A DNA stretch of 64,000 nt. It comes from Candidatus Chisholmbacteria bacterium (GTDB taxonomy: Bacteria > Patescibacteriota > Microgenomatia > UBA1400 > Chisholmbacteraceae). The notes below the pieces were generated by a model. The model worked only from the letters and a program-made list of their open reading frames with translations, made no database searches and was not told the DNA's origin. The position numbers and the translations under genes are program-made. Location: contig CAVPHZ010000002.1 of the NCBI GenBank assembly GCA_963704905.1, positions 634-64,633 of the forward strand, read 5' to 3'. Numbering within the stretch: the stretch's first letter is position 1; each line of letters opens with the position of its first letter. This document shows positions 2,449 through 45,489 of the stretch, piece after piece.

Positions 2449-3555
2449 AAATCGTCATTATCCTTCCCACATACAACGAAGTAGAAAACATAGAACAGAT
2501 AATCGTAACGCTTCAAGAAAGTTCAAAAAAATATTCCCAACACCAAACACATCTTTTAGTAGTGGACGATAATTCACCAGACAAAACTGGCGATAAAGTA
2601 AAAGAACTTCAAGGAAAAGTACGATAATCTCCACTTATTATCTGGTGAAAAGAGAGGATTGGGTCAAGCCTATTTGAGGGGAATGGATTACGCCACCGAA
2701 AAACTCGGGGCTGAAGTGATGTTTGAGATCGACGCTGACTTTCAGCACGATCCACATGCCACACCGGAATTCATCTCAAAAATCGACGAAGGGTTCGATT
2801 TCGTTATTGGAAGTCGATACATCAAAGGTGGTTCAATTCCAAGCAATTGGGGTCTGAAAAGAAAAGTATTCAGTATCATAGGTAACCTAATCGTTCGTGG
2901 CGCATTAACAAATATTTCTGTTCATGACTGGACGTCGGGTTATCGGGCAATAAAAAGTTGGGTGTATAAAAAAGTTCGTGATGATTTAGCGCAATATAAT
3001 GGGTACACGTTTCAAGTAGCTTTCCTGCACAAAGCAATAGAGTCAAAAGCCAAGATTGTTGAAGTGCCAATTCAATTTGGTGAGAGAAAATATGGAAAAT
3101 CAAAAATTGGTGGAGAGTATATAAAAAATCTACTCCTGTATCTTATACACACAAGAATTCGATTCATCAAATTTCTCATCGTTGGAACCATCGGCTTCAT
3201 CGTAAATACCATAGGATTAGAAGGGTTCATCTACTTGGGCTTGAGACCATCATTAGCTGGAGCCGCCGGAGCGGAACTAGCTATCTTTTCTAATTTCACC
3301 TTAAATAATCTCTGGACATTCAAGGAAAATAAAATTACTTCAGTGAAACAGATCCCGGTCAAATTTCTTATCTTTAACGCTGCATCATTTGGCTCCGTTG
3401 TCATACAAGCAATTACGATTGAAATAGGATCTCGATTGTTTGGCGTGGAGCTCTATAGACTCTATTTTATTATCGGAGTTGGTATAGGCCTCATCTGGAA
3501 CTACGTTATGTATAATCGTGTCGTTTGGAAAACCCACAAAACCGATGTCAAATGA
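2445..3555 (+). pseudogene. polyprenyl-phosphate sugar synthase (DPM1/GtrB-like GT2) fused to a C-terminal GtrA-like 4-TM domain; reading frame broken by a +1 frameshift near nt 2616-2621, either an authentic pseudogene or an assembly error
   Basis: ORF 2445..2627 encodes the GT2 N-terminus (IVIILPTYNEVENI...LLVVDDNSPDKTGDKVKELQGK). Shifting +1 in the 'ggaaaagtac' tract continues directly as YDNLHLLSGEKRGLGQAYLRGMDYA...IDADFQHDP...IGSRYIKGG, the canonical DPM-synthase continuation, into ORF 2659..3555. The last ~120 aa (FLIVGTIGFIVNT...LWTFKEN...IWNYVMYNRVVWK) match the GtrA-family signature. Confidence 0.75.
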
Positions 3556-13035: not shown

Positions 13036-15342
13036 ATGAACAGGAAACATATAGTCCTGCTATTGGCATTTTTTATTTTTATTCCATTTATTATTTATTG
13101 GAAAATTCCACTCTTAGGTCTCATTCCATTTCCCGGAGATCTCCTAGTAGGAAGATTTTTTCCATTCAATTCTGTGGAGTGGCTAGGGTATCCAAATGGC
13201 GTGCCGTATAAAGAATTCATCAACGCTGATGTAGTCAGACAGCTCTATCCATGGAGAAATCTAGCCATCACTACGCTTAAAAGCGGTCAACTCCCAGGAT
13301 GGAATCCTTATGCATTTTCAGGAAATCCTCTTCTTGCAAATATTCAATCGGCCGCATTTTATCCCTTAAATATTCTCTATTGGTTGATGAGCCATCAATC
13401 AGCGTGGATCGTTGGAGTTCTTCTCCAACCCATACTAGCAATGATCTTTATGTATATGTTTACCAAAGAGTTAAAGTTCTCGTCACCAGCGTCAATTCTA
13501 TCAAGCCTAGCATTTGCCTTCAGTGGGTATATGGTAGTCTGGTGGGAGTTTAATACTGTTGGTCATGCTGCACTTTGGGCTCCACTTATATTGTGGGCTA
13601 TTGAGCGATTTAAACAATCGAAGCACTCGAAATATCTCATAGTCATATCATTTGCACTTTCAGCATCTTTGCTGGCTGGACATCTCCAGACCTCGATCTA
13701 TGTGACGATCATCTCAATCACTTATGCCGCCTTTCGGTTATCACAAGAAGAAAGACGATCTCTGCTTGCAGTCAAACTAATAATTGCTATGACAACAAGC
13801 ATTCTCATTGCTTTTCCACAGTTGCTACCAGCCTTGAAATTTGCTCCACTCACGCCAAGAGGTACACAACCGGATGCTGAAATCTTCATGCAGTTTAGAA
13901 TACCTCTCGAAAATCTCATAACATTCTTATCTCACGACTACTTTGGAAATCCAGCGGTAAACAACTTCTGGGGAAAAGATTATGGAGAATTCATGGCATA
14001 TTTTGGAGTCATCGCATTTATCATGAGTCTCTTTGCACTGCAAAACAATGATAGAAAAACCAAGTATTTTTTCGTTATAGCTGGTCTTGCGCTCATCTCA
14101 GCTCTAAAAACACCACTTCCTCTTCTACTTCATAAAATGAACATTCCAGTTCTCTCAACAAGTGCACCATCTCGAGCTGTATTTATCGTTCACTTTGCAG
14201 CAAGTGTGCTGGCTGGGTATGGTTTTGATGCTTGGAAAAAATACAATATCAATAATATAAAGAAAACTCTAATTCTGGTGGTGCTGATCTTTGCAGCTGC
14301 GTGGATTGTCGCGTTCATTGGATCTTTAAGTTCAGATCTAGCGCATTCAGCGCAATGGAAAGTCTCGCTGAGAAATCTCATCATCCCAACCGGCATTGCT
14401 ATAGCACTATCCGCACTCACGGTTATAAAAGATCATGACTATGTTAGGTCATTCAAATATATTTGGAAGCCGAGCCTCATTGTGTTGTTTTCTTTAGTCA
14501 TTGGAGAATATGTGTATTTTGCCAACAAATATCAGACTTTTTCCGAACCACAATTTTTCTTTCCCAAATCACCAGTCTACGAATATTTGCGAAACGAAAC
14601 TCGGGAGATACCCTATCGATTTTTCGGGGATTACACCGCTTCTGTCACTAGTAATTCTTGGTTACCTTATAATGTATATGGTGTAGAAGGCTATGATGGG
14701 CTTTACTTAAGACGTTATGGTGAGTTATTGATATCTTCACATGAAGGGAAAATACCGGTATCAGTACCAAGATCAGATGCGAACCTTAAAACAAACAGTG
14801 ACGATGTACGACGTAGACGCTTGCAGGACCTTTTAGGAGTGAAGTTCATTCTTGATAAAAATGATTATCCGCAGAGTGATTGGGATCCAGATCCGGTGCG
14901 CTTTCCGGAGGATCGCTATCAACTCATCTGGCAAAAAGGAAAGTTTAAAGTATATGAGAATCTGCAGGTCTTCCCAAGGGCATATCTAGTATCGAATTAT
15001 CTGGTAGAAAAAGAACCTCAAAATATTATTGATATCATTTTCAATGAGAACATCGATCTAACAAAAACCTTGGTTTTAGAAGAAGATATTAAAAAAACAT
15101 TAGAGGCTTCTGAAGGATTAGTACAATTTCAGACCTATGCTCCCAACATCATTGAGCTAGTTGTGGATACCCCAACGCAGCAATTGTTATTCCTTTCAGA
15201 CTCTTTCCATCCAGATTGGCAGGCTTTTGTCGATCAAGATGAGGTGGAAGTCTATAGAGCAGATTATGCATTTAGAGCTATCCTCATTCCTTCAGGGCAG
15301 CATAAAATTAAATTTACGTACAAACCGACCTTTCTTAGATGA
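13036..15342 (+). CDS. YfhO-family GT-C membrane glycosyltransferase
   Basis: YfhO N-terminal loop signature ...LPGWNPYAFSGNPLLANIQSAAFYPLNILYW, many TM segments, and a C-terminal extracytoplasmic domain with FHPDWQAFVDQDEVEVYRADYAFRAILIPSGQHKIKFTYKP. Confidence 0.85.
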   Translation: MNRKHIVLLLAFFIFIPFIIYWKIPLLGLIPFPGDLLVGRFFPFNSVEWLGYPNGVPYKEFINADVVRQLYPWRNLAITTLKSGQLPGWNPYAFSGNPLLANIQSAAFYPLNILYWLMSHQSAWIVGVLLQPILAMIFMYMFTKELKFSSPASILSSLAFAFSGYMVVWWEFNTVGHAALWAPLILWAIERFKQSKHSKYLIVISFALSASLLAGHLQTSIYVTIISITYAAFRLSQEERRSLLAVKLIIAMTTSILIAFPQLLPALKFAPLTPRGTQPDAEIFMQFRIPLENLITFLSHDYFGNPAVNNFWGKDYGEFMAYFGVIAFIMSLFALQNNDRKTKYFFVIAGLALISALKTPLPLLLHKMNIPVLSTSAPSRAVFIVHFAASVLAGYGFDAWKKYNINNIKKTLILVVLIFAAAWIVAFIGSLSSDLAHSAQWKVSLRNLIIPTGIAIALSALTVIKDHDYVRSFKYIWKPSLIVLFSLVIGEYVYFANKYQTFSEPQFFFPKSPVYEYLRNETREIPYRFFGDYTASVTSNSWLPYNVYGVEGYDGLYLRRYGELLISSHEGKIPVSVPRSDANLKTNSDDVRRRRLQDLLGVKFILDKNDYPQSDWDPDPVRFPEDRYQLIWQKGKFKVYENLQVFPRAYLVSNYLVEKEPQNIIDIIFNENIDLTKTLVLEEDIKKTLEASEGLVQFQTYAPNIIELVVDTPTQQLLFLSDSFHPDWQAFVDQDEVEVYRADYAFRAILIPSGQHKIKFTYKPTFLR

Positions 15343-17702
15343 AGCCAAAGATTAATAAATTATTCCCACTTGGAATTGTGTTCCTTTTTTCTTGCCTGAT
15401 CTTTTGGAAATCAATTGTTTATGGATTAGTGCCTATTCCATTCGATCAACTAGTGACCGGTTTTTTTCCATATAACAATGGTGGATGGACTCAAGTGGGT
15501 GCATTTCCACAACCAAAAGGTGGTTGGTATGCAGTCGATGCCATCCGTCAAATGTACCCTTGGAAAGAATTAGTGATCGATCAACTAAAGAATGGACAGA
15601 TTCCTCTTTGGAATCCATATAATTTTTCCGGATATCCTTTGCTTGCAAATATCCAATCTGCAGTCTTCTACCCGCTCAACTTAGTCTTTCTTATCCCATC
15701 TTTTCCCTGGTCTTGGACTGCGTACATTGCGCTTGCTGTACTGCTACCTGCGTACTTTATGTTTCATTTCCTCAGATCATTGGATCGATCACCATTGGCA
15801 TCAGTAATTAGTGCGATTGCATTTGCAGGAGCTGGGCAAATGATTGACTGGCTCGAGTGGGGGGTGATCACTCACACATTCATTTGGCTTCCGCTGTCAC
15901 TATATTCGATAAACAGATTCACACAGAAAAAAGATAAGAAATACTTATTACTCTTTATCTTTAGCATCATCTCAGCGATCTTTTCAGGATATCCACAAAG
16001 AGCTGCCTACAGTCTTATTGTTATTGTATTGTGGATTTTCATGAAATGGAGATCTCAAAAAAAATCTTCAATGAAACATCTAGTACCGATTTCCATGGCA
16101 TTCCTGCTCGCAATCAGCATGACAGCTGTGCAGTGGATTCCGACCGCTGAGTTTTACTTTCATTCGGCTATGCGGGGAGAAGTATCTGAACAGTTAAGCG
16201 AAAGAGGGGGTCTTCCTTGGCAGCAACTGGCAACTATTTTTGCTCCCGATTACTTTGGAAATCGGGTCACCAATAACTATTGGGCCAAAGACTTTGGAAA
16301 CATCGATTACATGGATGCTGATTTGTACATAGGGGCATCAGTAATTCCACTCATACTCTTAGCAATCTTTAGCCTCAAAAATAATAAACATATAAAATTT
16401 CTCACAATTCTGACCGTCATTGGCTTGCTGCTAGGTATCCGTAGTCCAATCTCAGGTATCGTCTCAGGTCTTGGAATTCCAGTGATCAGCACAGGCGTTG
16501 CCTCAGAGGCACTTATTATCACAGTTTTCTCTCTGGCTGCGCTCGCTGCATTTGGTTTTGATGATTTAAAAAGTGAAATCAGTTTTAAAAGACGATTAAC
16601 CTCAATTACAATAACCGGCGCAATCTATGCTCTTTTAATCTTTATGAGTCTCACATTTGATCAGGATAAAACAAGAACTGCATTACGAAATCTCGTTGTA
16701 CCAGGCACAGCTTTTCTTGGTGGAGCCGGTGCAATGATTGTCTTTATCAAGTTCAAGAAATCAACAATCCCGGCATTGCTGTTTATCGGATTCCTCTCAG
16801 TTGAACTACTGTTCCACTCAAATAAGATGCTTTCATTCTCTTCTCCAAACTTAGCGTATCCAGAACACATCCTCTTCAGTGAATTAAATAGCATTGCTGG
16901 CAATGATCGTGTTGCAGGATTTTGGGAAACTGAGATCTCTCCAAATATTCAAACCGCTGTGAGGATGAATTCAATTGAAGGATACGATCCTCTCTACATT
17001 TTACGTTACGGGGAGTTTATAAGTTCAGCTCAACAAGGAAGGTTAGAAAAGATAATTCCTAGGTCCGACGCAGATCTTGAACAGAAAAATGAGCAGAATC
17101 GCAACCGTGTTCTTGACTTAACCAGCGTAAAATATATACCTGCTAAAGTCACCAAATCTGATGAACTTTGGGAGCAAGAACCATTGAAGTACAATCCGCA
17201 GCGTTTCAAACTCGTCTGGCTGCAGGATCGTTTCAAGATCTATGAAAATCTTCACGCTCTCCCGAGAGTCAAGCTCTATTCAGATTGGGAGGTTATAGAA
17301 AGCGATGAGCAGATCATCGAAAAACTCTACGATCCAACCTTCAATCCTCAATCAACAGTAATTCTTGAACACCAGCCCCTACTTAAAGGTTCCGAACCTT
17401 TAAACGGAAAAGTAAGGATAACCTCATATGAACCGAATCGTGTTGATATTGAATCACAGTCAAATATACCAGCAATTCTTCTCCTCACAGATTCTTATTA
17501 TCCTGGCTGGAAAGCCACGGTTGATGAGAAACCTGTAGATATACTTCGTGCCAATTACACTTTTCGTGCGATTGAAGTTCCAGAAGGGAATCATAATATT
17601 ACTTTCAGTTATCAGCCAATTAGCTTCAAAGTCGGGTCCTTAATAAGTATTGTAAGTACTATTGTTGTAAGCGGACTAATCTACACTAAGAAAATATTAT
17701 GA
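15339..17702 (+). CDS. YfhO-family GT-C membrane glycosyltransferase (tandem paralog)
   Basis: IPLWNPYNFSGYPLLANIQSAVFYPLNLVFL and C-terminal YYPGWKATVDEKPVDILRANYTFRAIEVPEGNHNITFSYQP. ATGA coupling to the upstream paralog. Confidence 0.85.
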   Translation: MKPKINKLFPLGIVFLFSCLIFWKSIVYGLVPIPFDQLVTGFFPYNNGGWTQVGAFPQPKGGWYAVDAIRQMYPWKELVIDQLKNGQIPLWNPYNFSGYPLLANIQSAVFYPLNLVFLIPSFPWSWTAYIALAVLLPAYFMFHFLRSLDRSPLASVISAIAFAGAGQMIDWLEWGVITHTFIWLPLSLYSINRFTQKKDKKYLLLFIFSIISAIFSGYPQRAAYSLIVIVLWIFMKWRSQKKSSMKHLVPISMAFLLAISMTAVQWIPTAEFYFHSAMRGEVSEQLSERGGLPWQQLATIFAPDYFGNRVTNNYWAKDFGNIDYMDADLYIGASVIPLILLAIFSLKNNKHIKFLTILTVIGLLLGIRSPISGIVSGLGIPVISTGVASEALIITVFSLAALAAFGFDDLKSEISFKRRLTSITITGAIYALLIFMSLTFDQDKTRTALRNLVVPGTAFLGGAGAMIVFIKFKKSTIPALLFIGFLSVELLFHSNKMLSFSSPNLAYPEHILFSELNSIAGNDRVAGFWETEISPNIQTAVRMNSIEGYDPLYILRYGEFISSAQQGRLEKIIPRSDADLEQKNEQNRNRVLDLTSVKYIPAKVTKSDELWEQEPLKYNPQRFKLVWLQDRFKIYENLHALPRVKLYSDWEVIESDEQIIEKLYDPTFNPQSTVILEHQPLLKGSEPLNGKVRITSYEPNRVDIESQSNIPAILLLTDSYYPGWKATVDEKPVDILRANYTFRAIEVPEGNHNITFSYQPISFKVGSLISIVSTIVVSGLIYTKKIL

Positions 17703-18337
17703 TGATCACTGATTTGTACAAGAAATATTCCATTCCAACAAATCTCCAACAGCATATGTTTCGTGTCGCTGCATTGGGAAACATTATTTGCGATCATCTA
17801 AGAAATATTCAAGCAGATAAAGATATCATTACTCAAATGCTGTTACTTCATGACATGGGGAATATTCTCAAATTCGATTTTTCGAATCTAGATTTATTTG
17901 ATGAGGAGGACAAAAGCCAGATCGATAAATACAGAAAAGCTCAGCACGAATTTAAAAAGAAATACGGTAATCATCCAGATGAAGCGACGGTAAGTATCAT
18001 TGAGGAAACTGCATCAAATTCGAAAGTGTTAGAACTTTATAAAAATAGCCATTGGGAAAATGCTAAGGATTTTGTGAATTCAGAACATTGGGACAGAAAA
18101 ATTGCCTGCTACAGCGACATGAGAATTGGACCGTTTGGAATATTGAGTCTCAAAGAGAGATTTGACAATCTCATCAGCCGCCGACCGGAAACAAAACAAA
18201 GACTTAACGAGCTCTACTCAGACGGTAAAAAATTAGAGAAACAATTACAAGATACAACCACAAATAATCTTCTTACAATTGATGATGAAATACTCAATAA
18301 GAGATTTCAGTATCTTCAACATTTAAATATTAGCTAA
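17699..18337 (+). CDS. HD-domain metal-dependent phosphohydrolase
   Basis: H...HMFRVAALGNII...LLLHDMGN is the HD-superfamily H...HD motif. The predicted protein is soluble. ATGA-coupled to the preceding YfhO gene. Confidence 0.7.
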   Translation: MMITDLYKKYSIPTNLQQHMFRVAALGNIICDHLRNIQADKDIITQMLLLHDMGNILKFDFSNLDLFDEEDKSQIDKYRKAQHEFKKKYGNHPDEATVSIIEETASNSKVLELYKNSHWENAKDFVNSEHWDRKIACYSDMRIGPFGILSLKERFDNLISRRPETKQRLNELYSDGKKLEKQLQDTTTNNLLTIDDEILNKRFQYLQHLNIS

Positions 18338-18435
18338 GTGCTCTCACGACTCACTATACTAGCCCTTCGAAAAAGAACAGCAAACAACTTCAGAGGAGAA
18401 CAGATGATAGAATTGACCGAGATGAGATATTTTCT

Positions 18436-21153
18436 ATGAAAAAGAAACGAAATTCATCAATGTATAAGTGGATTCTGGTTATTGTTCTGCTTTCACTTTT
18501 CATCATTTGGCCGATGTTCCGGTCCGGATACTGGGAGAGTGATGATGGGGAGTGGATGGTGATTCGCTTTTCAGCCTTTCATGAATCACTAACAGATGGT
18601 CATTTTCCAGTTCGCTGGACGCAGAGGTTAAATCACGAGTTTGGCTATCCGGTCATGAATTTCTTGTATCCACTCCCGTTTTATCTTGCTGAATTGCCAA
18701 AGACACTTGGACTTGGTTTTGTTGATAGTGTCAAAGTCGTATTTGCCTCAAGTGTCGTAATCTCTGGTATTGGTATGTTTCTCTATGCCAAAAAGTGGGG
18801 AAGATTGGAAGGATTGCTTGCTTCAATCTTGTATTTATTCGCTCCATATCGCTTTTTTGTCCTCTACACCAGGGGATCATTAGGGGAGAGTGTAGCACTT
18901 GCCTTTGTACCTTTTCTATTTTATTTATTAGATCGACTTTTCAAGAAACCAAATATGAATAATACTTTGTTAAGCGGCATCATATACGCCACACTCATCA
19001 TGTCGCACAATGTTATCGCACTATTATTCACACCCATCGCCATACTGTACGTCTTCTTCAAACGAACAAGTAAAAAATTTTCACTTACCTATCCCCTTTT
19101 TGCCCTCACTATTGGTCTGTTACTTTCAGCATTTTTCTGGCTACCAGCGATAGCTGAACTGCAATACACCAGAGCAGCGAACCTCGTAATCTCCAACTAC
19201 AGCCAGTATCTTTTAAATGATCCACAGCTCATCTCACGACTTGGGCCAATTCACATGTTTGTTATAGCGGCAGGGTTAATTCTTGGTGCAAAATTCTTTT
19301 CAATCATTGGAATAGTCGTTGCATTTCTGATGCATACAAGCTTCAGTCATATTACGCAGTTTGTACCATTAATTCAAAAAATACAATTTCCATGGAGAAT
19401 GAGCACCGTATTCATGTTTGCTTCAGCCGCAACTGGAGCAAAGGTAATAAGCTCTAAACAAATTAAGAAGCGAGTCAAACCATTTATTGTCATCATCATT
19501 GGTGCGATATTTATTGCATTGTCATTCAATCAAACATACGGCATTAGATACGTTTCAAGAGATGAAGGGTTTTATACAACTAATGATGATACGACGACAG
19601 TGCAAAATGAATTCACGCCAATTTGGGTAATGAATGATCCAAAAAACAAAGTTGACCAGATGTTTGAGATTAAGTCTCATTCGGGAAAGTATGAAATTAC
19701 TGGTGAAGACCATCGAACTGGCTTTCACTTTTTCCAAATCCGCCTTAAAGACGAGGTGATCATTAAGGCTAATATTCATTACTTTCCTGGGTGGGAAATC
19801 TATGTTGATGATAAGAGAATAGAGCTAGATCCATCTCAAACTAATGACCTCTTAGAAGTCTTAGTTACGCCAATAGAATTTAAACTCAGAGATGTTAAAT
19901 TTGTCTTTGAATCAACGCCAATTCGCAAAATTTCAGAGTGGATTTCGATAATTGCTGCGGTTGGAATCACTGCATATTTCATATTCAAATATTTCGGAAA
20001 AAAAGATTGGAAAAAAGCATTGGGGATAACCACTGGAACCATTGCTATCCTAACGATAACGTTCTTTCTGCTGTCAAATCTTCATACATTTAGTGACACC
20101 TTTGACCCGAGAATTTCAGAACAAAAATATCTCAACTCTCAATGGATTGAAGGCGATGCAGGAAAAAATGTTCCCATAGGAGATAGTGGATTATATGCTT
20201 GGGCAGGATGGGAATATGTTCACGGAATAAATCCAATTCTCATTAATCCAGAAATGCCACCGATGGGAAAATACATCATTGGATTGGGGTTGTTGACACT
20301 TCACAGACCTGCAGTCATTGGCCTTATTTTTAACGGCTTTGCACTTCTCTCTCACTTTTTCTTAGCTAAAGAAGTAGTGAAGAATAAATGGCTAGCTATT
20401 ACATCAACCGCCCTTTTATCAACCGAGCCCATCATGAGAAACTTGCTCAACCTAACCATGCTTGATGGTCTACAATTGGGTTTTCTTAACCTAAGTTTCT
20501 TATTTTTCATAAAAGGCTTAAAAAATAAACCCTGGTTTATTCTCTCCTCGCTCATGCTTGGTGCGATGGCGTCTACCAAATTTTATGCTTCATCAGCTTC
20601 TGTTATTGGAAGCCTACTTTTATATCTAATAATTTCTCGAAAGTGGAGAGAATTGTGGTACTTCACATTCACCTTGCCAATAGTTGCCCTCGTACATACA
20701 TTTCAGTACATTGTTTACTTTCTAGACGGGAACTCACTGAGAGGATATCTCGGTGTACAAAAATGGATCTATACATTTTACAAACAAGGGAATGTCGGAA
20801 CGATTCCTGCCGGTTCATACTGGTTACTTGTGCTATTTAATCGCTGGAGAGTCTGGTTTACCGATGAGTGGGGCGTCTATAAAACGATTACCAGTGATTT
20901 GTGGAGATTTTCTTGGCCATTGAATTTATTTGCTGTATGTTCCTCAGTTTACCTATCCCTCAAAAAGCAGTTTCAGGAAGGTCAAAATGTTCTCATTATC
21001 TGGTTGCTTGTTTACAGCGGGTTCCTGACCTTCGTCATTGGCTGGCCACATTACATGCTACTCTATTTGCCTTTCAGTTATATCTTGCTTGTCTCCCTTA
21101 TTGATAAACTCGCACCTATTACCTTGAAAAGACTGGAAAAATGGAAAAAGTAA
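18436..21153 (+). CDS. large GT-C-like polytopic membrane protein, divergent YfhO-related family (C-terminal PGW domain); paralog of 21141 and 53800 genes
   Basis: N-terminal signature SGYWESDDGEWMVIRFSAFHESLTDGHFPVRWTQ...GYPVMNFLYPLPFYL, at least 12 TM segments, and C-terminal HYFPGWEIYVDDKRIELD as in the YfhO C-terminal domain. 905 aa. Confidence 0.6.
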   Translation: MKKKRNSSMYKWILVIVLLSLFIIWPMFRSGYWESDDGEWMVIRFSAFHESLTDGHFPVRWTQRLNHEFGYPVMNFLYPLPFYLAELPKTLGLGFVDSVKVVFASSVVISGIGMFLYAKKWGRLEGLLASILYLFAPYRFFVLYTRGSLGESVALAFVPFLFYLLDRLFKKPNMNNTLLSGIIYATLIMSHNVIALLFTPIAILYVFFKRTSKKFSLTYPLFALTIGLLLSAFFWLPAIAELQYTRAANLVISNYSQYLLNDPQLISRLGPIHMFVIAAGLILGAKFFSIIGIVVAFLMHTSFSHITQFVPLIQKIQFPWRMSTVFMFASAATGAKVISSKQIKKRVKPFIVIIIGAIFIALSFNQTYGIRYVSRDEGFYTTNDDTTTVQNEFTPIWVMNDPKNKVDQMFEIKSHSGKYEITGEDHRTGFHFFQIRLKDEVIIKANIHYFPGWEIYVDDKRIELDPSQTNDLLEVLVTPIEFKLRDVKFVFESTPIRKISEWISIIAAVGITAYFIFKYFGKKDWKKALGITTGTIAILTITFFLLSNLHTFSDTFDPRISEQKYLNSQWIEGDAGKNVPIGDSGLYAWAGWEYVHGINPILINPEMPPMGKYIIGLGLLTLHRPAVIGLIFNGFALLSHFFLAKEVVKNKWLAITSTALLSTEPIMRNLLNLTMLDGLQLGFLNLSFLFFIKGLKNKPWFILSSLMLGAMASTKFYASSASVIGSLLLYLIISRKWRELWYFTFTLPIVALVHTFQYIVYFLDGNSLRGYLGVQKWIYTFYKQGNVGTIPAGSYWLLVLFNRWRVWFTDEWGVYKTITSDLWRFSWPLNLFAVCSSVYLSLKKQFQEGQNVLIIWLLVYSGFLTFVIGWPHYMLLYLPFSYILLVSLIDKLAPITLKRLEKWKK

Positions 21154-22895
21154 ATTCTTTACTCAAGCGTCATTGGGCATTCATCGTCATTGTCTTTCTG
21201 ACAATTCCAGCCATGCTTCCATTATTCAAATCTGGATTCTTTCCCATACATGATGATCAACAGGTGGTTCGATTATTTGAACTGGATCGATCGCTTGCCG
21301 CTGGCCAATTTCCTGCCCGGTGGGTTAAGAATCTTGGCTTTGGATTTGGTTATCCATTATTTATTTTTTATCCACCTTTCATCTACTACCTTGGGGAAAT
21401 ATTTCACCTTGGTTTGGGAACAGGATTTATCGATTCAATAAAATTGGTCTTCGCAGCCGCATTTATTGGGGCAGCATATTCTATGTATCTTTGGGTAAAA
21501 GAGCATTTCGGTAAAGTACCGGCAATTGTTGCCGCAGCATTGTATACCTACGCGCCATATCATGCAGTTGATGCATATGTAAGAGGTGCGCTTGCTGAGC
21601 TCATGTCGTTTGTCTGGCTACCTGTAATTTTACTCGCTACAGATCGGTTAATCACAAAAAAACAAAAGCACTATTGGCTGTGGCTGGGAGTTTTTCTCGC
21701 ACTTCTGATGATCACGCATAATCTTATCTTTCTACCATTTTTCCCACTCTTTCTGATTTACGCTGGCTTTCTCCTTCTAAAAACAACTAATAAAACACCC
21801 CATATACTACATACTATTTACGCTATACTCTTAGCCCTTGGACTCAGTGCCTTCTTCTGGATTCCAGCACTTATTGAAAAGCAATACACGTTGGTAGATT
21901 CAATCTTGCTTTCAGAACTGGCCAGTTACAAACTACATTTTGTTGAGTTACAACAACTATGGAACTCTCTTTGGGGATTCGGCGGCTCAACCGCCGGTCT
22001 CTTAGACGGTCTATCGTTTAAAATTGGTAAACTCCATGTAGTTCTTTCAATATTCTCGGTAGCTGTTTTGGGAGTTTACTACAAGCAGACGCGAGAAAAA
22101 CCAATAACATATTCTGTATTTATTGTCTCAATTCTTACTCTCCTAAGTGTATTCCTCACAACTGTGTTTTCTCAAGTCATCTGGGAAATAGCTAGTCCAC
22201 TGCAATTCCTCCAATTTCCCTGGAGATTCCTGACATTTATCGTTCTTGGTTCTGCATTCCTCTCAGCCGGTTTTATTTATGCCTTCGAGATCATACTCAA
22301 AAACTCACTCGCAACACTTGTCCTAGTGATTACGGTTCTTATTCTTTTATTCATTCCAAACCTCAAACTCTTTGCACCCCAGTCATATCTTGATGTAACT
22401 GATAGCTATTACACATCAGATGATTTCATTAAATGGAGAATCAGCAAAACCAGTTTTGAATTTGTACCAAAAGGAGTTAAAACAACTACGGAATATCAAC
22501 AACTTGAAAATAAAGAGATCACTCAGGTTGCAATAAGCGAAAATGAAATTCGAAAAACAGCATATGAAGTTCTCAGCGGAAATGTTGAAGTAAGTATTGT
22601 CCAAGATAATCCCGGAAATATCATACTAGAAACAAAATCAAGCCAAGAAAGCCAAGTTCAGCTCAATACATTTGATTTCCCTGGCTGGTCGGTACGATTG
22701 GATAGGGAAAATATTCAGCACAGTTCTCAAAATGATTTACATTTGATACGGGTAAATATTCCTGACGGTGAACACACGATTGAAGCAAGATTCTCAGAAA
22801 CCCCAGTAAGAAAGCTTTCAGACCTCATAACTCTCTCATCTCTTGGTATTTTCTTCTACTTTTTATTTAATGAGTACTTACTTAATAAGAAGTGA
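21141..22895 (+). CDS. GT-C-like polytopic membrane protein, divergent YfhO-related family (paralog of 18436/53800)
   Basis: SGFFPIHDDQQVVRLFELDRSLAAGQFPARWVKNLGFGFGYPLFIFYPPFIYYL...YTYAPYHAVDAYVRGALAE, with C-terminal FDFPGWSVRLDRENI. Confidence 0.6.
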   Translation: MEKVNSLLKRHWAFIVIVFLTIPAMLPLFKSGFFPIHDDQQVVRLFELDRSLAAGQFPARWVKNLGFGFGYPLFIFYPPFIYYLGEIFHLGLGTGFIDSIKLVFAAAFIGAAYSMYLWVKEHFGKVPAIVAAALYTYAPYHAVDAYVRGALAELMSFVWLPVILLATDRLITKKQKHYWLWLGVFLALLMITHNLIFLPFFPLFLIYAGFLLLKTTNKTPHILHTIYAILLALGLSAFFWIPALIEKQYTLVDSILLSELASYKLHFVELQQLWNSLWGFGGSTAGLLDGLSFKIGKLHVVLSIFSVAVLGVYYKQTREKPITYSVFIVSILTLLSVFLTTVFSQVIWEIASPLQFLQFPWRFLTFIVLGSAFLSAGFIYAFEIILKNSLATLVLVITVLILLFIPNLKLFAPQSYLDVTDSYYTSDDFIKWRISKTSFEFVPKGVKTTTEYQQLENKEITQVAISENEIRKTAYEVLSGNVEVSIVQDNPGNIILETKSSQESQVQLNTFDFPGWSVRLDRENIQHSSQNDLHLIRVNIPDGEHTIEARFSETPVRKLSDLITLSSLGIFFYFLFNEYLLNKK

Positions 22896-24427
22896 AAAAG
22901 TCTCGAAATGCAAAGCTACTCCCTCAAGAGCAGAAGCTCAAAAAGATCATTATAGTAAGTTGTGGTTTACTTCTAGTAGTCACCTTCTATCTTCATGCTC
23001 GACTGATAGTAATCAATGCTCCAATTGAACTCAGAGAAAGTGCAACTGTTCTTACCACCAGTGCATTACTCAAAGGCATCAACCCATTTTCGCTGGAACA
23101 CACACCGGAATTTATTAATGTACACGGAATTCTATACAACCTTGTTGTCTACCCGTTTGCTGCATTCTTCGGATCTACTTTTTTACTCCATCGTAACGTT
23201 TCTGCTTTTTTTATCTTCGCCTCAACTGTTTTGATTTATTTGGCGATATTGAAGGAGAGTCATTCTTCTTGGCTAGCATTTACAGCATCAGTTTTCATAT
23301 ATTCCCAGATCGTAATTGGCACACCGATTGGGATGTCAGGAGGTTTTGATGTGGTTTCACGACCGGATTCACTTGGAATGTTTTTGTTTTTAGCCAGCCT
23401 GCTCATACCATATTGGTTAAAGTTCAGTAATAGAGGATTAATAGTAGGTTTAACACTTGGAATATTGGCGTTTTTTGCAAAGCCGTACTTTATTCTCGGA
23501 CTTGTCTTTCTAGGCATTTACCTGTTTCTCTTCAATGCAAAGAAGACAGGTCTGATATTTTCACTAGGCGGAGTAGCGCTATTCATATTCGTTGCATGTA
23601 TCGTACAGTATTATTTTGAAACCTATTTTTTTAATGTTGTCCTCATCCATCATGGTATTCGTAGCTGGAGCTTTCCACATCTCATCAGCCAGATTAAGAC
23701 GATAGTTGTGTGGAATGGAGCACCATTAGCCGTGCTCATTTTGTGGCTAACGCAAAAGAAAGCAGCAAGAGTAAAAATTGACTATTTTTCATCAGCGCTG
23801 GTTTTTTTTACGATTATAACTGTTACGCTTTTCGGACCGCACATGGGAAATGCGATGAGCTACTTCACTCACCTCATCACACCTTTTCTGCTTATCTGGG
23901 TTTTTTCCAACATCCAAAATCCTCTATTCAACAAAGATCGCTTGTTTTTATATTTCCTGATAATCGTAAACGTAGGCATAGTGGGATTTGCAGCTACCTC
24001 ATACTATCCAAAAACTCAGATAAATAAGGCAGAGTGGAAGTGGTGGGAACAGCGGTTGAAAAAAAGTGAGAAAATATTTAACTCTTCAGCAACAGCTCAC
24101 ATAGTATTTGAGCAGAATAAGCAGCTCTATGATAATGGCCATTCTGAGTATCTAAAATATGGTCTTGAGACAAACGACAAACTTATGCTTGTACCAAGCG
24201 CAAGAGCTAAGCTGGAAGCGTATACAACTGATATACAGGGTAAAATTCACAGTCAGTTTTTCGACCTCGTTATCATCGGCGAAAATAGTTTTCCGGTCTT
24301 TTCCCGCCAAGAACTTGCCAAGACATATCAACTCGAAGACACGCGCCGAATCACCATGTACAAACAATCTTGGCTAGAAGAACTGTGGATTCCAAGAATC
24401 GATACAGAGGAGGTTAGTGAGAAATGA
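22892..24427 (+). CDS. polytopic membrane protein, uncharacterised (possibly another GT-C-like protein); GTG start
   Basis: 511 aa with about 12 hydrophobic segments and a roughly 150-aa hydrophilic C-terminal domain. No family signature recognised. GTGA overlap with the upstream stop. Confidence 0.5.
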   Translation: MKKSRNAKLLPQEQKLKKIIIVSCGLLLVVTFYLHARLIVINAPIELRESATVLTTSALLKGINPFSLEHTPEFINVHGILYNLVVYPFAAFFGSTFLLHRNVSAFFIFASTVLIYLAILKESHSSWLAFTASVFIYSQIVIGTPIGMSGGFDVVSRPDSLGMFLFLASLLIPYWLKFSNRGLIVGLTLGILAFFAKPYFILGLVFLGIYLFLFNAKKTGLIFSLGGVALFIFVACIVQYYFETYFFNVVLIHHGIRSWSFPHLISQIKTIVVWNGAPLAVLILWLTQKKAARVKIDYFSSALVFFTIITVTLFGPHMGNAMSYFTHLITPFLLIWVFSNIQNPLFNKDRLFLYFLIIVNVGIVGFAATSYYPKTQINKAEWKWWEQRLKKSEKIFNSSATAHIVFEQNKQLYDNGHSEYLKYGLETNDKLMLVPSARAKLEAYTTDIQGKIHSQFFDLVIIGENSFPVFSRQELAKTYQLEDTRRITMYKQSWLEELWIPRIDTEEVSEK

Positions 24428-26970: not shown

Positions 26971-27875
26971 AAATATCGGTAGTAATCACCGCTCATAACG
27001 AGGAAAAGATGATTGAGGATTGCCTCAAGTCTGTAAACTGGGCAAATGAGATTATTCTCGTAGATAACGAATCAAGTGACAATACTGGCACAATTGCGAA
27101 AAAATTTACAGATAAAATATTCACTCATAAAAACGATCCAATAAATTTGAATGACAGCAAAAACTTTGGATTTACTAAGGCTTCCGGAGATTGGATCTTA
27201 AGTATAGATGCGGACGAACGAATTAGTCCTGAACTTCACAAAGAGATAATCCAAAGACTCATGGGCGCTCCTGACTATGTCGATGGCTATCTTATACCAA
27301 GAAAAAATATCATCTTTGGAAAATGGATTAAGCATGGTCTGTGGTATCCAGACCACCAACTGAGACTATTTAGAAAAGGTAAAGGAAAATTCCCAAGCAA
27401 ACACAACCACGAACTTCTTGAAGTTAAGGGTCAGACATTAGAACTTAAACAACACATCGTCCACCTCAACTACACCTCAGTAGATCAATATCTTAACAAA
27501 ATCGCTTATTACTACTCTGACAATGAAGCTGAACAATACCTCAATTCTGGGAAAAAGCTCCAGTGGTATGATGCTATTCGAATGCCAGCTTCAGATTTTC
27601 TCCTTAATTTCTTCGCCAGAAGTGGGTACAAAGACGGTTTACATGGGTTAGCATTGAGTTTACTGCAGTCGTTTTACATGTTCATTGTGTTTGCTAAAGT
27701 TTGGGAAAAACAAGGATTTTGGGAATACAATAGTAAAGAATTTCTTGAGGATACAAAAAAAGAATTCATTTCAAAAGGAAAAGAATTGCGGTACTGGATC
27801 AGTCGAACAAGGGAAGAAAATAGCGGCGATATTGAACGACTACTGTTGAAAGTCAAACGGAAACTACTTCCATGA
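26967..27875 (+). CDS. GT2 glycosyltransferase, WaaE/KdtX-like subfamily
   Basis: ISVVITAHNEEKMIEDCLKSVNWANEIILVDNESSDNTGTIAKKF...WILSIDADERISPEL. Paralogous to the 36140 and 55548 genes. Confidence 0.8.
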   Translation: MKISVVITAHNEEKMIEDCLKSVNWANEIILVDNESSDNTGTIAKKFTDKIFTHKNDPINLNDSKNFGFTKASGDWILSIDADERISPELHKEIIQRLMGAPDYVDGYLIPRKNIIFGKWIKHGLWYPDHQLRLFRKGKGKFPSKHNHELLEVKGQTLELKQHIVHLNYTSVDQYLNKIAYYYSDNEAEQYLNSGKKLQWYDAIRMPASDFLLNFFARSGYKDGLHGLALSLLQSFYMFIVFAKVWEKQGFWEYNSKEFLEDTKKEFISKGKELRYWISRTREENSGDIERLLLKVKRKLLP

Positions 27876-29014
27876 GTAGCCGAAGGGCATACGGAGTACT
27901 TCTCTTAATCATTACTCTTTTCTTTCTTTCATACCTTGTACAAGGACTTGGATTTTTATATGGAGATAACTTGGGTCAGAGAATTCCAGGCATATATTTT
28001 TGGAAAAATGAAGTAACCAGCGGACGATTACCACTTTGGAATCCATATATTCTTGGGGGATTACCTTTTCTCGCAGATCTTTCTCATAACGCGCTTTCAC
28101 CGACCAATATTGTCTATCTAGTAATGTCAGTTCCCTATGCTATTACCGCGTTAACAATAATCTACATCGCCATCGCAGCTTGTGCAACCTACGCGTATGT
28201 ACATAGCGTAACCAACAAAACGCTGCCGAGCATGTTTTCTGCGATTACATTTGCCCTATCAGGTACTGTAATCGCATCAGTAAATGACATCAACTCTTTG
28301 CAGGGTATTACACTTGTTCCGCTTGTGTTGTATGGAGCTCATCGTTTCACAGAAAAAGCAAACAATACCAGAGCATTAATACTTATCTTTGCATTAGTAT
28401 TTCAATTTTTATCCTCACATCCACAGTACAGTTACTACTCATGGATTCTGGTCGCAAGTTACATTGTTGTGTTTGGAACAGGGAAACTGAAAGTAAGAGT
28501 AGCAAAAACATTTGCTGTATTTCTCTTTACTCTCGGACTAATCGCCGTGCAGCTCTTACCTTTTTTAGAGCTTGCTCGAGAGTCATATCGTCCGCAAACA
28601 AGTGAGTTCGCAGCCCAAAATCAACTCAAAATCATTGAACTGCCATCATTTATACTCGCTGATCTATTCGGATCGTGGAGAAGTGGTTCATCTTGGGGTC
28701 CAGGAGCACAGTTAGAAACAGGTCTGGCAAATTCTGAGGGGTATCTTGGCATCCTACCGCTTTTGTTTGCGGTTATCGCAGTCTTAAAGAGGAAATCGAA
28801 ACGGACAAAGTATTGGGTTGTAGCAGGACTCATTGCACTTCTGCTGAGCCTAGGAAATCAAACACCGTTGTATGAATTAGTAAGGCGAGCCTTACCACTT
28901 TTTTCAAATTTCCGATCACCAATACGGATGTTATCTATCTACAGCTTCTCGGTATCAGTATTAGCTGGAGTAGGCCTTTCAGCAATTAAAGTGGAAAGGA
29001 AAAGGAAGAAATGA
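27872..29014 (+). CDS. YfhO-like GT-C membrane protein, N-terminal half (split gene)
   Basis: GRLPLWNPYILGGLPFLADLSHNALSPTNIVYLVMS is the YfhO loop signature. The protein ends after SFSVSVLAGVGLSAIK, the position where full-length paralogs continue (compare FAASVLAGYGFDAW in the 13036 protein). Confidence 0.7.
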   Translation: MSSRRAYGVLLLIITLFFLSYLVQGLGFLYGDNLGQRIPGIYFWKNEVTSGRLPLWNPYILGGLPFLADLSHNALSPTNIVYLVMSVPYAITALTIIYIAIAACATYAYVHSVTNKTLPSMFSAITFALSGTVIASVNDINSLQGITLVPLVLYGAHRFTEKANNTRALILIFALVFQFLSSHPQYSYYSWILVASYIVVFGTGKLKVRVAKTFAVFLFTLGLIAVQLLPFLELARESYRPQTSEFAAQNQLKIIELPSFILADLFGSWRSGSSWGPGAQLETGLANSEGYLGILPLLFAVIAVLKRKSKRTKYWVVAGLIALLLSLGNQTPLYELVRRALPLFSNFRSPIRMLSIYSFSVSVLAGVGLSAIKVERKRKK

Positions 29015-30153
29015 GGCAGATTCTCTATTCAATTGTAGGCACAACTTTCCAAGCTGTGAAACGCCGGCCAATGACAGAAAGTGCAGCTTTTTCTCAAGAT
29101 AAAGTAAATATTATTCTCGATACGAATATCCAAAATATTTTCATCGTACTCGCTATCATAATCATTGCATTGTATGTGGTTAAGAAAAAACGACACCTGT
29201 TGTACCAAGTGATAGTGATCTTAACAATCATAGATCTCTTTACTTTTTCCAAAGGTAATCTCATCACGTTCCCAATATCAATTACCAGTCTAGAAAGCAG
29301 CGCTTCTAAATGGCTTAAACAAAATCTTGGTAATTATCGATTTGTATCAACAAGCGGGAACTTTCCCTATACAGGCTTGGGTGTGTACTGGACACATTTA
29401 AGAGCCAGGGAGCCGTTTTCTCCAAATAACCTTACAGGTGAAGAGTTAAAGCAATTCACAAGACTAAAAAAAGAACTGACGGTCATTCCGGAGAATCAGG
29501 GTCTCAGGAGTAACATCGCTGATGCATCTGGCTACGCTGCAGCAATACCATCAAATTATCTCCATTTTTGGAATGAAGAGCCAAAAAGCCCCAACACAAC
29601 ATCCATTCAAGACTTAAACAGCAACAAACTTAACTTGGCTGGAGTTAAGTACGTTATTACTGGCTATCCCGATGATTATCTAGCTTCACTCGACTCAGTT
29701 CAATTTGAAAGAGTATTTGGTGAAGACCATGTTCAAATTTACGAAAATCAGGATGTAATTCCTCGAGTATTTTTACTCGATAACAACCAAGATCAATATC
29801 CCGCTCAAATTATTGACTACTCTCCAAATCGAGTACTAATTGAAACCGAACTAGATAGGATTTCTGAACTTGTTTTGACTGACACTTTTTACCCTGGCTG
29901 GACTGCGTATGTTGACGGAGAACCTTCGTCTGTAGAATCTTATGAAGGTGCATTTCGAAAGGTAGCTCTTCCGTTCGGGAAGCACATTGTTGAATTTCGC
30001 TATGAACCCGATTCTCTCAGGTTGGGTGCTATAATTTCAGCAAGCACTGTAGTTTTACTTTTCTCAAGCTTAATATGGCAAAAACAAAAGTCGCAATTAT
30101 CATCCTCAATTTCAAAGGCAAACAAGACACGATCGAATGCCTTCAGTCGCTAA
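29011..30153 (+). CDS. YfhO-like GT-C membrane protein, C-terminal half (split gene)
   Basis: Begins with TM helices and ends with the YfhO-type C-terminal domain DTFYPGWTAYVDGEPSSVESYEGAFRKVALPFGKHIVEFRYEPD. It is in a different frame from the N-terminal half, with an ATGA junction. Confidence 0.7.
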   Translation: MRQILYSIVGTTFQAVKRRPMTESAAFSQDKVNIILDTNIQNIFIVLAIIIIALYVVKKKRHLLYQVIVILTIIDLFTFSKGNLITFPISITSLESSASKWLKQNLGNYRFVSTSGNFPYTGLGVYWTHLRAREPFSPNNLTGEELKQFTRLKKELTVIPENQGLRSNIADASGYAAAIPSNYLHFWNEEPKSPNTTSIQDLNSNKLNLAGVKYVITGYPDDYLASLDSVQFERVFGEDHVQIYENQDVIPRVFLLDNNQDQYPAQIIDYSPNRVLIETELDRISELVLTDTFYPGWTAYVDGEPSSVESYEGAFRKVALPFGKHIVEFRYEPDSLRLGAIISASTVVLLFSSLIWQKQKSQLSSSISKANKTRSNAFSR

Positions 30154-31041: not shown

Positions 31042-31770
31042 ATGGCTAAACAACCTTTCCTCTCACTTATAATCCCTGTATATAACGAAGAAAAGCGGAT
31101 TAAATATGGTCTGACACAGATTTTCTCCTTTCTTAAAAATAAGAAGTTCAGCTGGGAATTAATCATCGTGGATGACGGATCCATTGATAACACAGTTGCA
31201 CTAGCTAAAAAACTCACACTCACAATAAAGACTGTAAAGATACTCAACAGCAACCATCAAGGAAAAGGTGGGGCGCTCAAAAAAGGGGTAAAGAGTGCAC
31301 AAGGAGAGTGGCTCATCTTTTTTGATATCGATATCGCAACCCCAATGGATGAATACAATAATTTCGAAAAATGGATGGGTAGGTTCGATGTCATCATTGG
31401 ATCACGAAAAATGAAAGGGGCGCATATAGAAGTACATCAACCATTTTTTCGAGAATTTGGCGGGAAAGTATTTACCCTACTTACAAACACGCTGGTAACG
31501 AGAAATATTTCGGATGTTACTTGTGGCTTTAAACTCTTTAAAACCAAAATCGCCAAAGATCTGTTCCAGCGCTCAAGGCTCGCAGATTGGAGTTTTGACG
31601 CCGAGATTCTTTACTTAGCGCAAAAAAAAGGTGTGAAAATCAAAGAAGTTCCTGTTCGTTGGAAGGATGACCCTCAAACAAAAGTCAATCTTATGAAAGA
31701 TACCATCGATGCGTTTTATGGGCTTCTTAAAATCCGCTTCAATGACTTCCAAGGTTTGTACGATCGTTAA
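31042..31770 (+). CDS. GT2 glycosyltransferase, polyprenyl-phosphate sugar synthase (Alg5/DPG-synthase-like)
   Basis: LSLIIPVYNEEKRI...LIIVDDGSIDNT...GKGGALKKGV...FFDIDIATP...IGSRKMKGA...CGFKLFKTKIAKDLF. Confidence 0.88.
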   Translation: MAKQPFLSLIIPVYNEEKRIKYGLTQIFSFLKNKKFSWELIIVDDGSIDNTVALAKKLTLTIKTVKILNSNHQGKGGALKKGVKSAQGEWLIFFDIDIATPMDEYNNFEKWMGRFDVIIGSRKMKGAHIEVHQPFFREFGGKVFTLLTNTLVTRNISDVTCGFKLFKTKIAKDLFQRSRLADWSFDAEILYLAQKKGVKIKEVPVRWKDDPQTKVNLMKDTIDAFYGLLKIRFNDFQGLYDR

Positions 31771-32503
31771 GTTTTCTGCTAAGACAAACAATAGATAATC
31801 CAAACGGCATACGAATGTGCTGGAGAACCGACGCCTCAACGGTGGTGATTTGAACGAGCAACCAATTAATTGATTTTGGGACCTCAATAAAATCTGAACG
31901 CTGCTTCATAGATTTTCCGAAAATTGACTTAGCAACTCGAACAATAATTGCGACAGGAACCAAATACCAATAAAAATATGAGCTCATCTCAACCTCAAAT
32001 CCAGTCTCCTTCAACTTTGCAACAAGAGCACGACGACGATATCGCCGTTTATGTCCCAGTACTTCATCCCAATAAGTCCATAGCCATGGGTAAGCAGGTA
32101 CAGTGAGTACAAATCTGCCTCCCGGTTTTAAAACTCTCTGAATCTCAGAAAGAATGAGCCTATCGTTATCCAAATGCTCAAGTACGTCGAGCATTGTGAC
32201 AGCGTCGAATAGTTCATTTTGGAACGGAAGCGGCTTAGTGAGATCAGTGGCTGCGACATTTGAAAATCCACGTTTTTTACAATACGATATCGCCTTTGTC
32301 GAGCCGTCAACCCCAAATACCTCTCCAAACCTGGAAAAATCTTTCATCATCATGCCTGTTCCACATCCAATATCTAGAAATCTTGGATCTTGTAGTGAAT
32401 TGAGATATGAGTCAAGCATACGAAGAATAAGACGGCGCTTCGCCACATGCCACCAATAGGTGGACTCAAGCCGGTACATTTCATCAAAAAGATCGCTACG
32501 CAT
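31739..32503 (-). CDS. class I SAM-dependent methyltransferase
   Basis: This is the only substantial minus-strand gene. It carries SAM motif I FLDIGCGTGMMM, VFGVDGS, FDAVTMLDVLEHL and LKPGGRFVLTVP. Its 3' end overlaps the 3' end of the + strand GT2 at 31042..31770 by 32 nt (convergent overlap). Confidence 0.85.
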   Translation of the reverse strand: MRSDLFDEMYRLESTYWWHVAKRRLILRMLDSYLNSLQDPRFLDIGCGTGMMMKDFSRFGEVFGVDGSTKAISYCKKRGFSNVAATDLTKPLPFQNELFDAVTMLDVLEHLDNDRLILSEIQRVLKPGGRFVLTVPAYPWLWTYWDEVLGHKRRYRRRALVAKLKETGFEVEMSSYFYWYLVPVAIIVRVAKSIFGKSMKQRSDFIEVPKSINWLLVQITTVEASVLQHIRMPFGLSIVCLSRKLNDRTNLGSH

Positions 32504-45481: not shown

Positions 45482-45489
45482 ATCGCCTA

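Follow-up and report, generated by a model that had tools for sequence, protein, structure and literature searches.

In CsbB/GtcA/YfhO-type pathways, YfhO-type GT-C enzymes work with C55-P-sugars and set C55-P free. No phosphohydrolase is known among the components of the three-component extracytoplasmic CsbB/GtrB, GtcA/GtrA and YfhO glycosylation systems of Firmicutes, and the statement in the first-pass annotation that HD hydrolases do not belong to the standard components of GtrB/GtrA/YfhO systems is upheld here. Stand-alone, all-alpha HD proteins of about 200 aa are described in the YfbR/HDDC2/YGK1 5'-(deoxy)nucleotidases (HD_3, PF13023; YfbR-like, PF12917), which carry a four-ligand H...HD...D single-metal motif. 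YfbR is a Co2+/Mn2+-dependent nucleotidase specific for dNMPs (PMC8475336). Below we describe a gene that combines these two settings, namely an HD-domain protein gene lying within a block of GT-C glycosyltransferase genes of a Candidatus Chisholmbacteria bacterium.

The stretch of DNA analysed, here called the window, is 64 kb long and forms one glycosylation island over its entire length, so that any gene residing in it is flanked by glycosyltransferase genes. Like the Firmicutes systems, the window encodes GT2, GtrA-domain and YfhO proteins, and the genes surrounding the HD gene therefore plausibly work in the manner of a CsbB/GtcA/YfhO-type system. Two YfhO-family GT-C glycosyltransferases, 32% identical to each other, are encoded on the forward strand, as are all features given below: YfhO1 (13036..15342, 768 aa; Pfam YfhO PF09586, E 1e-35) and, directly upstream of the HD gene, YfhO2 (15339..17702, 787 aa; PF09586, E 3e-22). 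The HD gene itself (17699..18337, 212 aa, ATG start) is followed by a GT-C glycosyltransferase of 905 aa with Pfam matches to PTPS_related/PMT_2 (18436..21153) and by a further one of 584 aa, also assigned by Pfam matches (21141..22895), which is the fourth gene of a conserved block. This block of two YfhO and two further GT-C genes is a conserved unit in Patescibacteria.

The first-pass annotation described the HD gene as joined to the YfhO tandem by an ATGA overlap, and the sequence bears this out. The TGA of YfhO2 occupies 17700-17702 within the ATGA at 17699-17702 that is common to the two co-directional genes, and a second in-frame ATG of the HD gene lies at 17702. Overlaps of exactly 4 nt, counted from ORF coordinates, occur at 20 same-strand junctions in the window and are thus its default junction, indicating that the ATGA reflects a compact operon and no special coupling. 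A scan of positions 11800-18600 for promoters and terminators returned counts no higher than the shuffled expectation. We also considered base composition as a sign of recent horizontal insertion; the GC content of the HD gene is low (0.344, compared with 0.397±0.020 for the genes of the window), but its GC3 lies within 1 SD, and composition was rejected as not diagnostic.

The HD gene is a real, intact gene for an HD-type metal-dependent hydrolase. The 212-aa product scores above the cutoffs of both Pfam HD (PF01966; 29.3 bits, gathering cutoff 22) and HD_3 (29.6 bits, cutoff 22.5), and its AF2 model is all-alpha and compact with a mean pLDDT of 96.7; metal ligands, profile score and all-alpha HD fold all place it in the HD superfamily, as first proposed. 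The ligands are His19 (codon 17753..17755), the His51-Asp52 dyad (17849..17854), which lies in the motif LHDMGNILKFD, and Asp140 (18116..18118) in the motif YxDMRxGP. The four are invariant in an alignment of 44 sequences and, together with R161, 100% conserved across 180 representatives, which disposes of the possibility, raised in the first-pass annotation, that the HD motif residues are not conserved. N55, K58, Y138, R142, R154 and E180 are each at least 98% conserved in the larger alignment (N55 and K58, 98%; Y138 and R142, 99%). The four-ligand H/HD/D set points to a YfbR/HDDC2-like site with a single metal, and the conserved Arg and Lys residues hint that the substrate would be a small molecule bearing phosphate, most probably a nucleotide. 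We accordingly picture a soluble, metal-dependent small-molecule phosphohydrolase that is predicted to be catalytically competent and would probably act on nucleotides.

Relatives of this protein form a large subfamily, comprising at least 750 clusters at 50% identity (E<=1e-30), nearly all of them single-domain proteins of 205-230 aa. Relatives were found in 427 species genomes, mostly of Patescibacteria, with Nano- and Pacearchaeota in addition, and the subfamily is almost confined to ultra-small symbiotic lineages. Metagenomes contributed another 425 hits, which brings the detected loci to roughly 850. Its signature reads H-x31-HDxGNxxK ... YxDxR ... R ... R ... E, and the window protein shows no departure from it when compared with the 180 representatives. 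Among 44 members, 43 match Pfam HD, 35 HD_3 and 15 YfbR-like. No NCBIfam equivalog or subfamily model matches the window protein, which yields HDIG-level matches only, and a literature search returned nothing on this HD family in Patescibacteria or on a YfhO-HD linkage. The subfamily is large and uncharacterised, belongs chiefly to Patescibacteria (CPR) and DPANN-type archaea, and has the YfbR/HDDC2-type nucleotidases as its nearest relatives.

The YfbR/HDDC2 proteins are the best sequence matches of the window protein in the PDB and in Pfam (PDB profile search: HDDC2, 2e-5; 1xx7, 7e-5; YfbR, 4e-3), and they share its four-ligand motif. Full-length similarity to this family in both sequence and structure was, however, not found, and the catalytic Glu at position HD+3 of the nucleotidases (E72 of YfbR; HDMAE in HDDC2) is replaced by Asn55 in the window protein and is Asn in 98% of the family. 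This substitution, at a position where a catalytic residue is usual, raises the possibility that the protein performs another chemistry, for example like that of cyanamide hydratase, or is a ligand-binding HD fold. We regard this as quite improbable, given the strict conservation of all four metal ligands and of several basic residues, a pattern typical of phosphate-ester hydrolases, and given that non-hydrolase HD proteins match no better than hydrolases do. The family may define a new catalytic variant with an HDxGN motif, an Arg-rich pocket and a residue at HD+3 that is neither acidic nor His. The oxetanocin-like HD phosphohydrolases OxsA and Pyrococcus 1xx7 are likewise short and single-domain, and 1xx7 ranks second in both the profile search and Foldseek. 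They differ, however, in that the Foldseek E value is 0.5 with a TM of about 0.33-0.40, there is no common substrate-binding motif and the window offers no biosynthetic cluster context.

A regulatory role had also been envisaged for the HD protein, as a (p)ppGpp- or cyclic-nucleotide-type input into glycosylation. Such a signalling enzyme, with (p)ppGpp, a cyclic di-nucleotide or Ap4A as its substrate, is highly improbable, since the matches to these enzymes are at the level of the generic HD fold only (10-18% identity) and the link to glycosylation genes is not conserved. Unlike the RelA/SpoT/Mesh1 (p)ppGpp hydrolases, the window protein reads HDMGNI and lacks HDxxED. Compared with HD-GYP phosphodiesterases (DvhD, 9rc0/9rbz; V-cGAP3, 5z7c), to which it is 12-13% identical, it has no GYP motif and no receiver, PAS or other sensor domain. 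It also lacks the additional His ligands of a bi- or tri-nuclear site, and no conserved His beyond H19 and H51 is found in the 180-sequence alignment. Checking the Pfam assignment, as the first-pass annotation advised, thus gave HD and HD_3, with HD-GYP features absent.

We next weighed a role in recycling the lipid carrier, the dephosphorylation of polyprenyl pyrophosphate also having been suggested at the outset. A C55-PP phosphatase would have in its favour just its genomic position among lipid-carrier-dependent GT-C genes, and we consider it extremely improbable. The AF2 fold is that of a compact, all-alpha, soluble protein, and a Kyte-Doolittle scan of the HD homologues encoded in related loci detected no transmembrane segment. 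Moreover, since C55-P is what YfhO-type GT-C enzymes set free, they have no need of a pyrophosphatase, and the HD gene is missing from the orthologous blocks.

These blocks bear on how the HD gene relates to its neighbours. The order YfhO1-YfhO2-GT-C905 is kept in five orthologous or homologous loci (L171-L175); identities span 40-56%, and in four of the loci 49-56%. In all five the HD gene is absent and YfhO2 is directly adjacent to GT-C905, with a spacing of 13-34 bp or an overlap. YfhO1 orthologues are 46-55% identical in L084 and L171-L173, and YfhO2 orthologues 49-54% identical in L084 and L171-L174 and 42% in L175. The GT-C905 orthologues that directly follow YfhO2 are 52-56% identical in L171-L174 and 40% in L175, and counterparts of the 584-aa protein are present in L171 (71%) and L175 (48%). 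A comparable arrangement, with a phosphatase gene placed after YfhO, is seen in L175, where the gene of a HAD hydrolase overlaps a different YfhO gene at its 3' end. An HD gene following YfhO2 was found only in the window and in one relative (L084/L085). Since related genomes keep the glycosyltransferase operon without it, the HD gene most likely came to lie here by insertion in this lineage, as a widespread gene of housekeeping type, and it would be co-transcribed with the glycosyltransferases without being a conserved or required part of their machinery.

The neighbourhoods of the HD family lead to the same view. Dereplication left about 135 loci that encode the family, and just one of these (L084/L085) has YfhO within 10 kb; close HD relatives (47-52% identity) sit in unrelated contexts (P0003, P0005, P0008, L001 and L091-L093). 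The tight, co-directional upstream neighbours (n=71) include IleRS (6-8), His_Phos_1 (7), a cytidylate-kinase-like protein (6), NDK (3), ArgRS (3), Gmd (3) and YfhO (1), and those downstream include RecO (6), HAD (3) and NUDIX (2). The commonest tight neighbours are housekeeping genes, encoding IleRS, ArgRS, the cytidylate-kinase-like protein, NDK, histidine phosphatase, RecO, NUDIX and HAD proteins. In an NJ tree of the subclade, which carries no support values, the window protein and P0002 fall into the same small group, not as sisters, a topology as compatible with one acquisition as with several. Across the family, the HD gene seems to behave as a mobile housekeeping gene that is usually found beside genes for aminoacyl-tRNA synthetases, nucleotide metabolism and DNA repair, and that in this lineage lies between YfhO2 and the next gene of the four-gene GT-C block. 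On the comparative evidence, the YfhO genes are context only, and a functional tie between them and the HD gene, as first proposed from co-operonic placement, is not supported. We therefore favour, with a probability of roughly two in three (0.68), the reading that the HD gene encodes a stand-alone phosphohydrolase of a housekeeping-type family, inserted in the GT-C block and not part of the glycosylation machinery.

The main competing explanation is that the HD enzyme was recruited as an accessory of the glycosylation operon in the lineages of the window and L084. The loading of sugars onto polyprenyl phosphate by GT2 enzymes sets NDP or NMP free, and such an enzyme could relieve product inhibition by hydrolysing these, or else a side product in the form of a sugar phosphate or NDP-sugar. 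That the HD gene overlaps YfhO2 by ATGA and has the same orientation is consistent with this, as is the HAD hydrolase of L175. The order YfhO1-YfhO2-HD is also kept in L084/L085 despite about 50% protein divergence (HD, 50% identical), which allows for retention by selection in that lineage. In a separate clade (L021, L034, L039, L133 and L135), the HD gene follows a GDP-mannose 4,6-dehydratase gene by 1-2 bp beside GT-C genes, and this independent adjacency is a second glycan-related placement of the family. Taken literally, then, the prospect that the gene never co-occurs with GT-C genes in relatives does not hold, although the co-occurrence is not conserved. Glycosylation-like genes make up 3.9% of tight HD-family neighbours against a background of 1.7%, but this enrichment depends on about three independent events. 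Together with the five GT-C blocks that lack the HD gene, the relatives of similar identity in unrelated contexts and the unaltered family signature of the window protein, this leaves recruitment unlikely.

Were the linkage true, a cytoplasmic phosphohydrolase step would be added to YfhO-type extracytoplasmic glycosylation. With the comparative evidence against it, the finding becomes largely an ordinary one, in which a very large glycosylation island happens to house the gene of a generic HD hydrolase. Its modest remaining value lies in a large, sharply conserved subfamily whose active-site motif is atypical and none of whose members has been characterised, and in the conservation of the YfhO1-YfhO2-GT-C-GT-C block as a unit in Patescibacteria. 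It is distinctly unlikely that the GT-C operon of this lineage captured a member of this otherwise housekeeping HD family as a hydrolase of nucleotide or sugar-phosphate by-products, with the Gmd-HD pairing as a second such capture; an enzyme of this kind would resemble the Golgi NDPases, which sustain lipid-linked glycosylation, and would represent their bacterial counterpart.

The open reading frame at 17699..18337 (+) encodes a 212-aa HD-domain protein whose ATG initiation codon (17699-17701) lies on the TGA stop codon (17700-17702) of the second of two consecutive YfhO-family GT-C genes, forming an ATGA junction. The products of these genes, YfhO1 (13036..15342, +; Pfam PF09586, E 1e-35) and YfhO2 (15339..17702, +; PF09586, E 3e-22), share 32% identity. 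The HD protein scored above the curated Pfam cutoffs for both HD_3 (29.6 bits, cutoff 22.5) and HD (29.3 bits, cutoff 22), and its AlphaFold2 model was a compact all-alpha domain (mean pLDDT 96.7, pTM 0.92). ORF coordinates, Pfam and AlphaFold2 therefore bear out the first-pass annotation of an HD-superfamily ORF joined by ATGA to a YfhO pair. Counted from the ORF coordinates, 4-nt overlaps are the commonest junction type in the window (20 junctions), indicating that the ATGA at the HD gene reflects a compact co-transcribed array rather than special coupling.

The whole 64-kb window is one almost unidirectional glycosylation island, its sole clear minus-strand gene encoding a methyltransferase (31739..32503, -). 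The island carries at least 20 genes for GT-C-type membrane glycosyltransferases (PMT_2, YfhO, PTPS_related, GT87 and PIG-V-like), many GT2 and GT4 enzymes, a GtrA-domain protein, a Wzx-like flippase, methyltransferases, and several NDP-sugar dehydratases and epimerases, among them a GDP-mannose 4,6-dehydratase. It occupies at least 12% of its 508,777-bp contig, and any resident gene will be flanked by glycosyltransferase genes.

Several further features of the island were observed. An apparently split YfhO gene at 27872-30153 consists of two 380-aa ORFs with a 4-nt overlap, 27872..29014 covering YfhO profile positions 61-357 and 29011..30153 positions 754-835, reflecting either a true gene split or a frameshift. 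A tandem array at 41961-53063 comprises about seven paralogous GT-C genes of about 450-550 aa, mostly PMT_2, four of which (41961, 43610, 45490 and 51465) match one same protein of retrieved locus L024 (11364-13007). ORF 2659..3555, with a TTG start and a 210-bp gap ahead of it (region 2449-3555), combines a GtrA domain with a GT2 domain covering only profile positions 67-155, possibly a GT2-GtrA fusion that has lost its 5' part or been frameshifted.

We placed the closest YfhO2 homologues on their contigs (loci L171, L172, L173, L174 and L175). L171-L174 contain orthologues of YfhO1 (53-55% identity), YfhO2 (49-53%) and the 905-aa GT-C protein encoded downstream of the HD gene (GT-C905, 18436..21153; 52-56%); L171 also has an orthologue of the following 584-aa GT-C protein (GT-C584, 21141..22895; 71%), and in L175 the homologues of these block genes are more distant (37-48%). 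The GT-C gene came directly after YfhO2 in all five loci, at a distance of 28, 25, 13 or 34 bp in four of them and overlapping it by 10 bp in the other, and tblastn gave no hit to the HD gene in these loci. This gene order without the HD gene identifies YfhO1-YfhO2-GT-C905-GT-C584 as the conserved unit. The block (13036-22895), its order kept across several Patescibacteria contigs at 40-71% identity, appears to form an independent, conserved functional unit. As a facultative insert, the HD gene interrupts this block in the window and accompanies a shortened form of it in L084/L085. Separately, in L175 (2072-5282, -) the gene for a 212-aa HAD-family hydrolase shares 11 nt with the 3' end of another YfhO gene, an analogous placement of a small phosphatase after YfhO but with a different fold.

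From the HD-family side, we retrieved 80 genome loci, 80 metagenome loci and 10 loci of the closest homologues, with up to 10 kb of flank per side, and searched all their ORFs using each protein of the window as a phmmer query (E<=1e-3). YfhO homologues occurred only in L084/L085, the locus of homologue P0002 (HD 50% identical), in the order YfhO (46% to YfhO1), YfhO (54% to YfhO2), 12-bp spacer, HD, and a cupin gene on the opposite strand. Other close homologues adjoin a HAD hydrolase and a polysaccharide deacetylase (P0003, 48% identical), are set among unknown genes (P0005, 47%) or redox genes (P0008, 47%), or follow a PBP gene of the dcw cluster (P0012, 40%) or a 390-aa HD protein (P0011, 39%). 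Given these occurrences and the absence of HD from L171-L175, the functional HD-YfhO module proposed from the sequence is unsupported. At the P0011 locus (L088 8832-10645), the 390-aa HD protein is of a different type and overlaps the family member's start by 4 nt, so that the two make an HD-HD gene pair, with an M48 peptidase next; divergently upstream of P0005 lies a gene for a protein of 504 aa, predicted to have 7 TM segments (L086 3532-5046, -), homologous to the unannotated island membrane protein of ORF 22892..24427 (E 7e-8).

In a dereplicated set of 135 loci, co-directional neighbours within 80 bp were scanned against Pfam. Upstream (n=71) these included IleRS (tRNA-synt_1 6, DUF5915 8), His_Phos_1 (7), Cytidylate_kin2 (6), NDK, ArgRS and Gmd (3 each), and PolA, RecO and NUDIX (2 each), with YfhO in the L084 case only; downstream (n=56) they included RecO (6), HAD and metallo-beta-lactamase (3 each) and NUDIX (2). 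IleRS often lay directly upstream (P0025, P0184, P0219, P0203; L040, L049, L065, L066, L073); in P0025 (292 aa), a single ORF joins HD to the C-terminal DUF5915 domain of IleRS, and in P0184 (439 aa) and P0219 (442 aa) two HD domains are fused in tandem. Glycosylation-like ORFs made up 3.9% (5/127) of tight neighbours versus 1.7% of all ORFs in the loci; three of the five were one clade's Gmd gene, leaving only about three independent events, and the enrichment is not convincing. In that clade (L021 9004-10681; L034 8155-9880, labelled Woesebacteria; L039 3773-5480; L133; L135), the HD-family gene lies 1-2 bp past a GDP-mannose 4,6-dehydratase gene matching window 1474..2448 (E about 1e-118), with GT-C genes a few kb upstream. 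This independent Gmd-HD adjacency, together with the YfhO-YfhO-HD arrangement kept in L084/L085, supports a rival reading that we regard as unlikely, in which the HD protein was recruited to the operon in this lineage to hydrolyse NDP, NMP or a sugar phosphate.

Homologues of the HD protein are stand-alone proteins of 205-230 aa from Roizmanbacteria, Woesebacteria, Nomurabacteria, Paceibacterota, Saccharibacteria, Dojkabacteria and other Patescibacteria, and from the archaeal Nanoarchaeota and Pacearchaeota; a full HMMER scan recovered 750 clusters at 50% identity with E<=1e-30, and 1324 when the cutoff was relaxed to E<=1e-10. Recurrent neighbours encode cytidylate-kinase-like, NDK, NUDIX, HAD and histidine phosphatase proteins, as well as Tmk and Dut, both named by eye from their sequences. 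These neighbours and the restriction to salvage-dependent reduced genomes point to a role in nucleotide housekeeping and, with similarity to YfbR, HDDC2 and OxsA, suggest a nucleotide phosphohydrolase. We favour, with a probability of about 0.68, the combined reading that the protein is an HD phosphohydrolase of housekeeping type and that its gene's position is incidental or specific to the lineage; our confidence in any specific substrate class is much lower.

Across 180 representatives, H19, H51, D52, D140 and R161 were 100% conserved and N55, K58, Y138, R142, R154 and E180 at least 98% conserved. The H...HD...D set is the classical four-ligand site, and the alignment contained no further conserved His, which implies one metal ion, as in YfbR, rather than a bi- or tri-nuclear centre. 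HD-GYP, PDE and YqeK enzymes have such bi- or tri-nuclear centres. A single divalent metal on H19, H51, D52 and D140 would activate water for phosphoester attack, while the invariant basic residues R22, K58, R142, R154 and R161 would bind phosphate groups. Asn55 would stand in place of the usual general acid/base, so that metal-bound hydroxide and E180 may drive catalysis instead. The protein is small, has no partner domains, and combines a confident HD fold with an intact, strictly conserved metal site. A non-hydrolytic HD protein is very improbable. Hydrolysis of a signalling nucleotide is likewise very improbable, as the sequence lacks the motifs required. Still further from credible is a C55-PP phosphatase, since the HD protein is predicted to be soluble and YfhO chemistry is not known to yield C55-PP; a Kyte-Doolittle scan of its homologues in related loci found no TM segments.

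By sequence profile, the characterised proteins nearest to the HD protein were HDDC2 (2e-5), Pyrococcus 1xx7 (7e-5), YfbR (4e-3), yeast YGL101W and OxsA, all aligning over the N-terminal half only. The gene belongs to the HD superfamily; its subfamily is uncharacterised, and members are already recorded in databases under 'HD domain-containing/hypothetical protein'. YfbR is a Co2+/Mn2+-dependent, dNMP-specific 5'-nucleotidase (PMC8475336). HDDC2 has a Glu three residues past the HD dyad (HDMAE), where the HD protein has the near-invariant Asn55. This substitution and the N-terminal-half-only alignments place the protein, by sequence comparison, closest to the YfbR/HDDC2 nucleotidase family but outside it.
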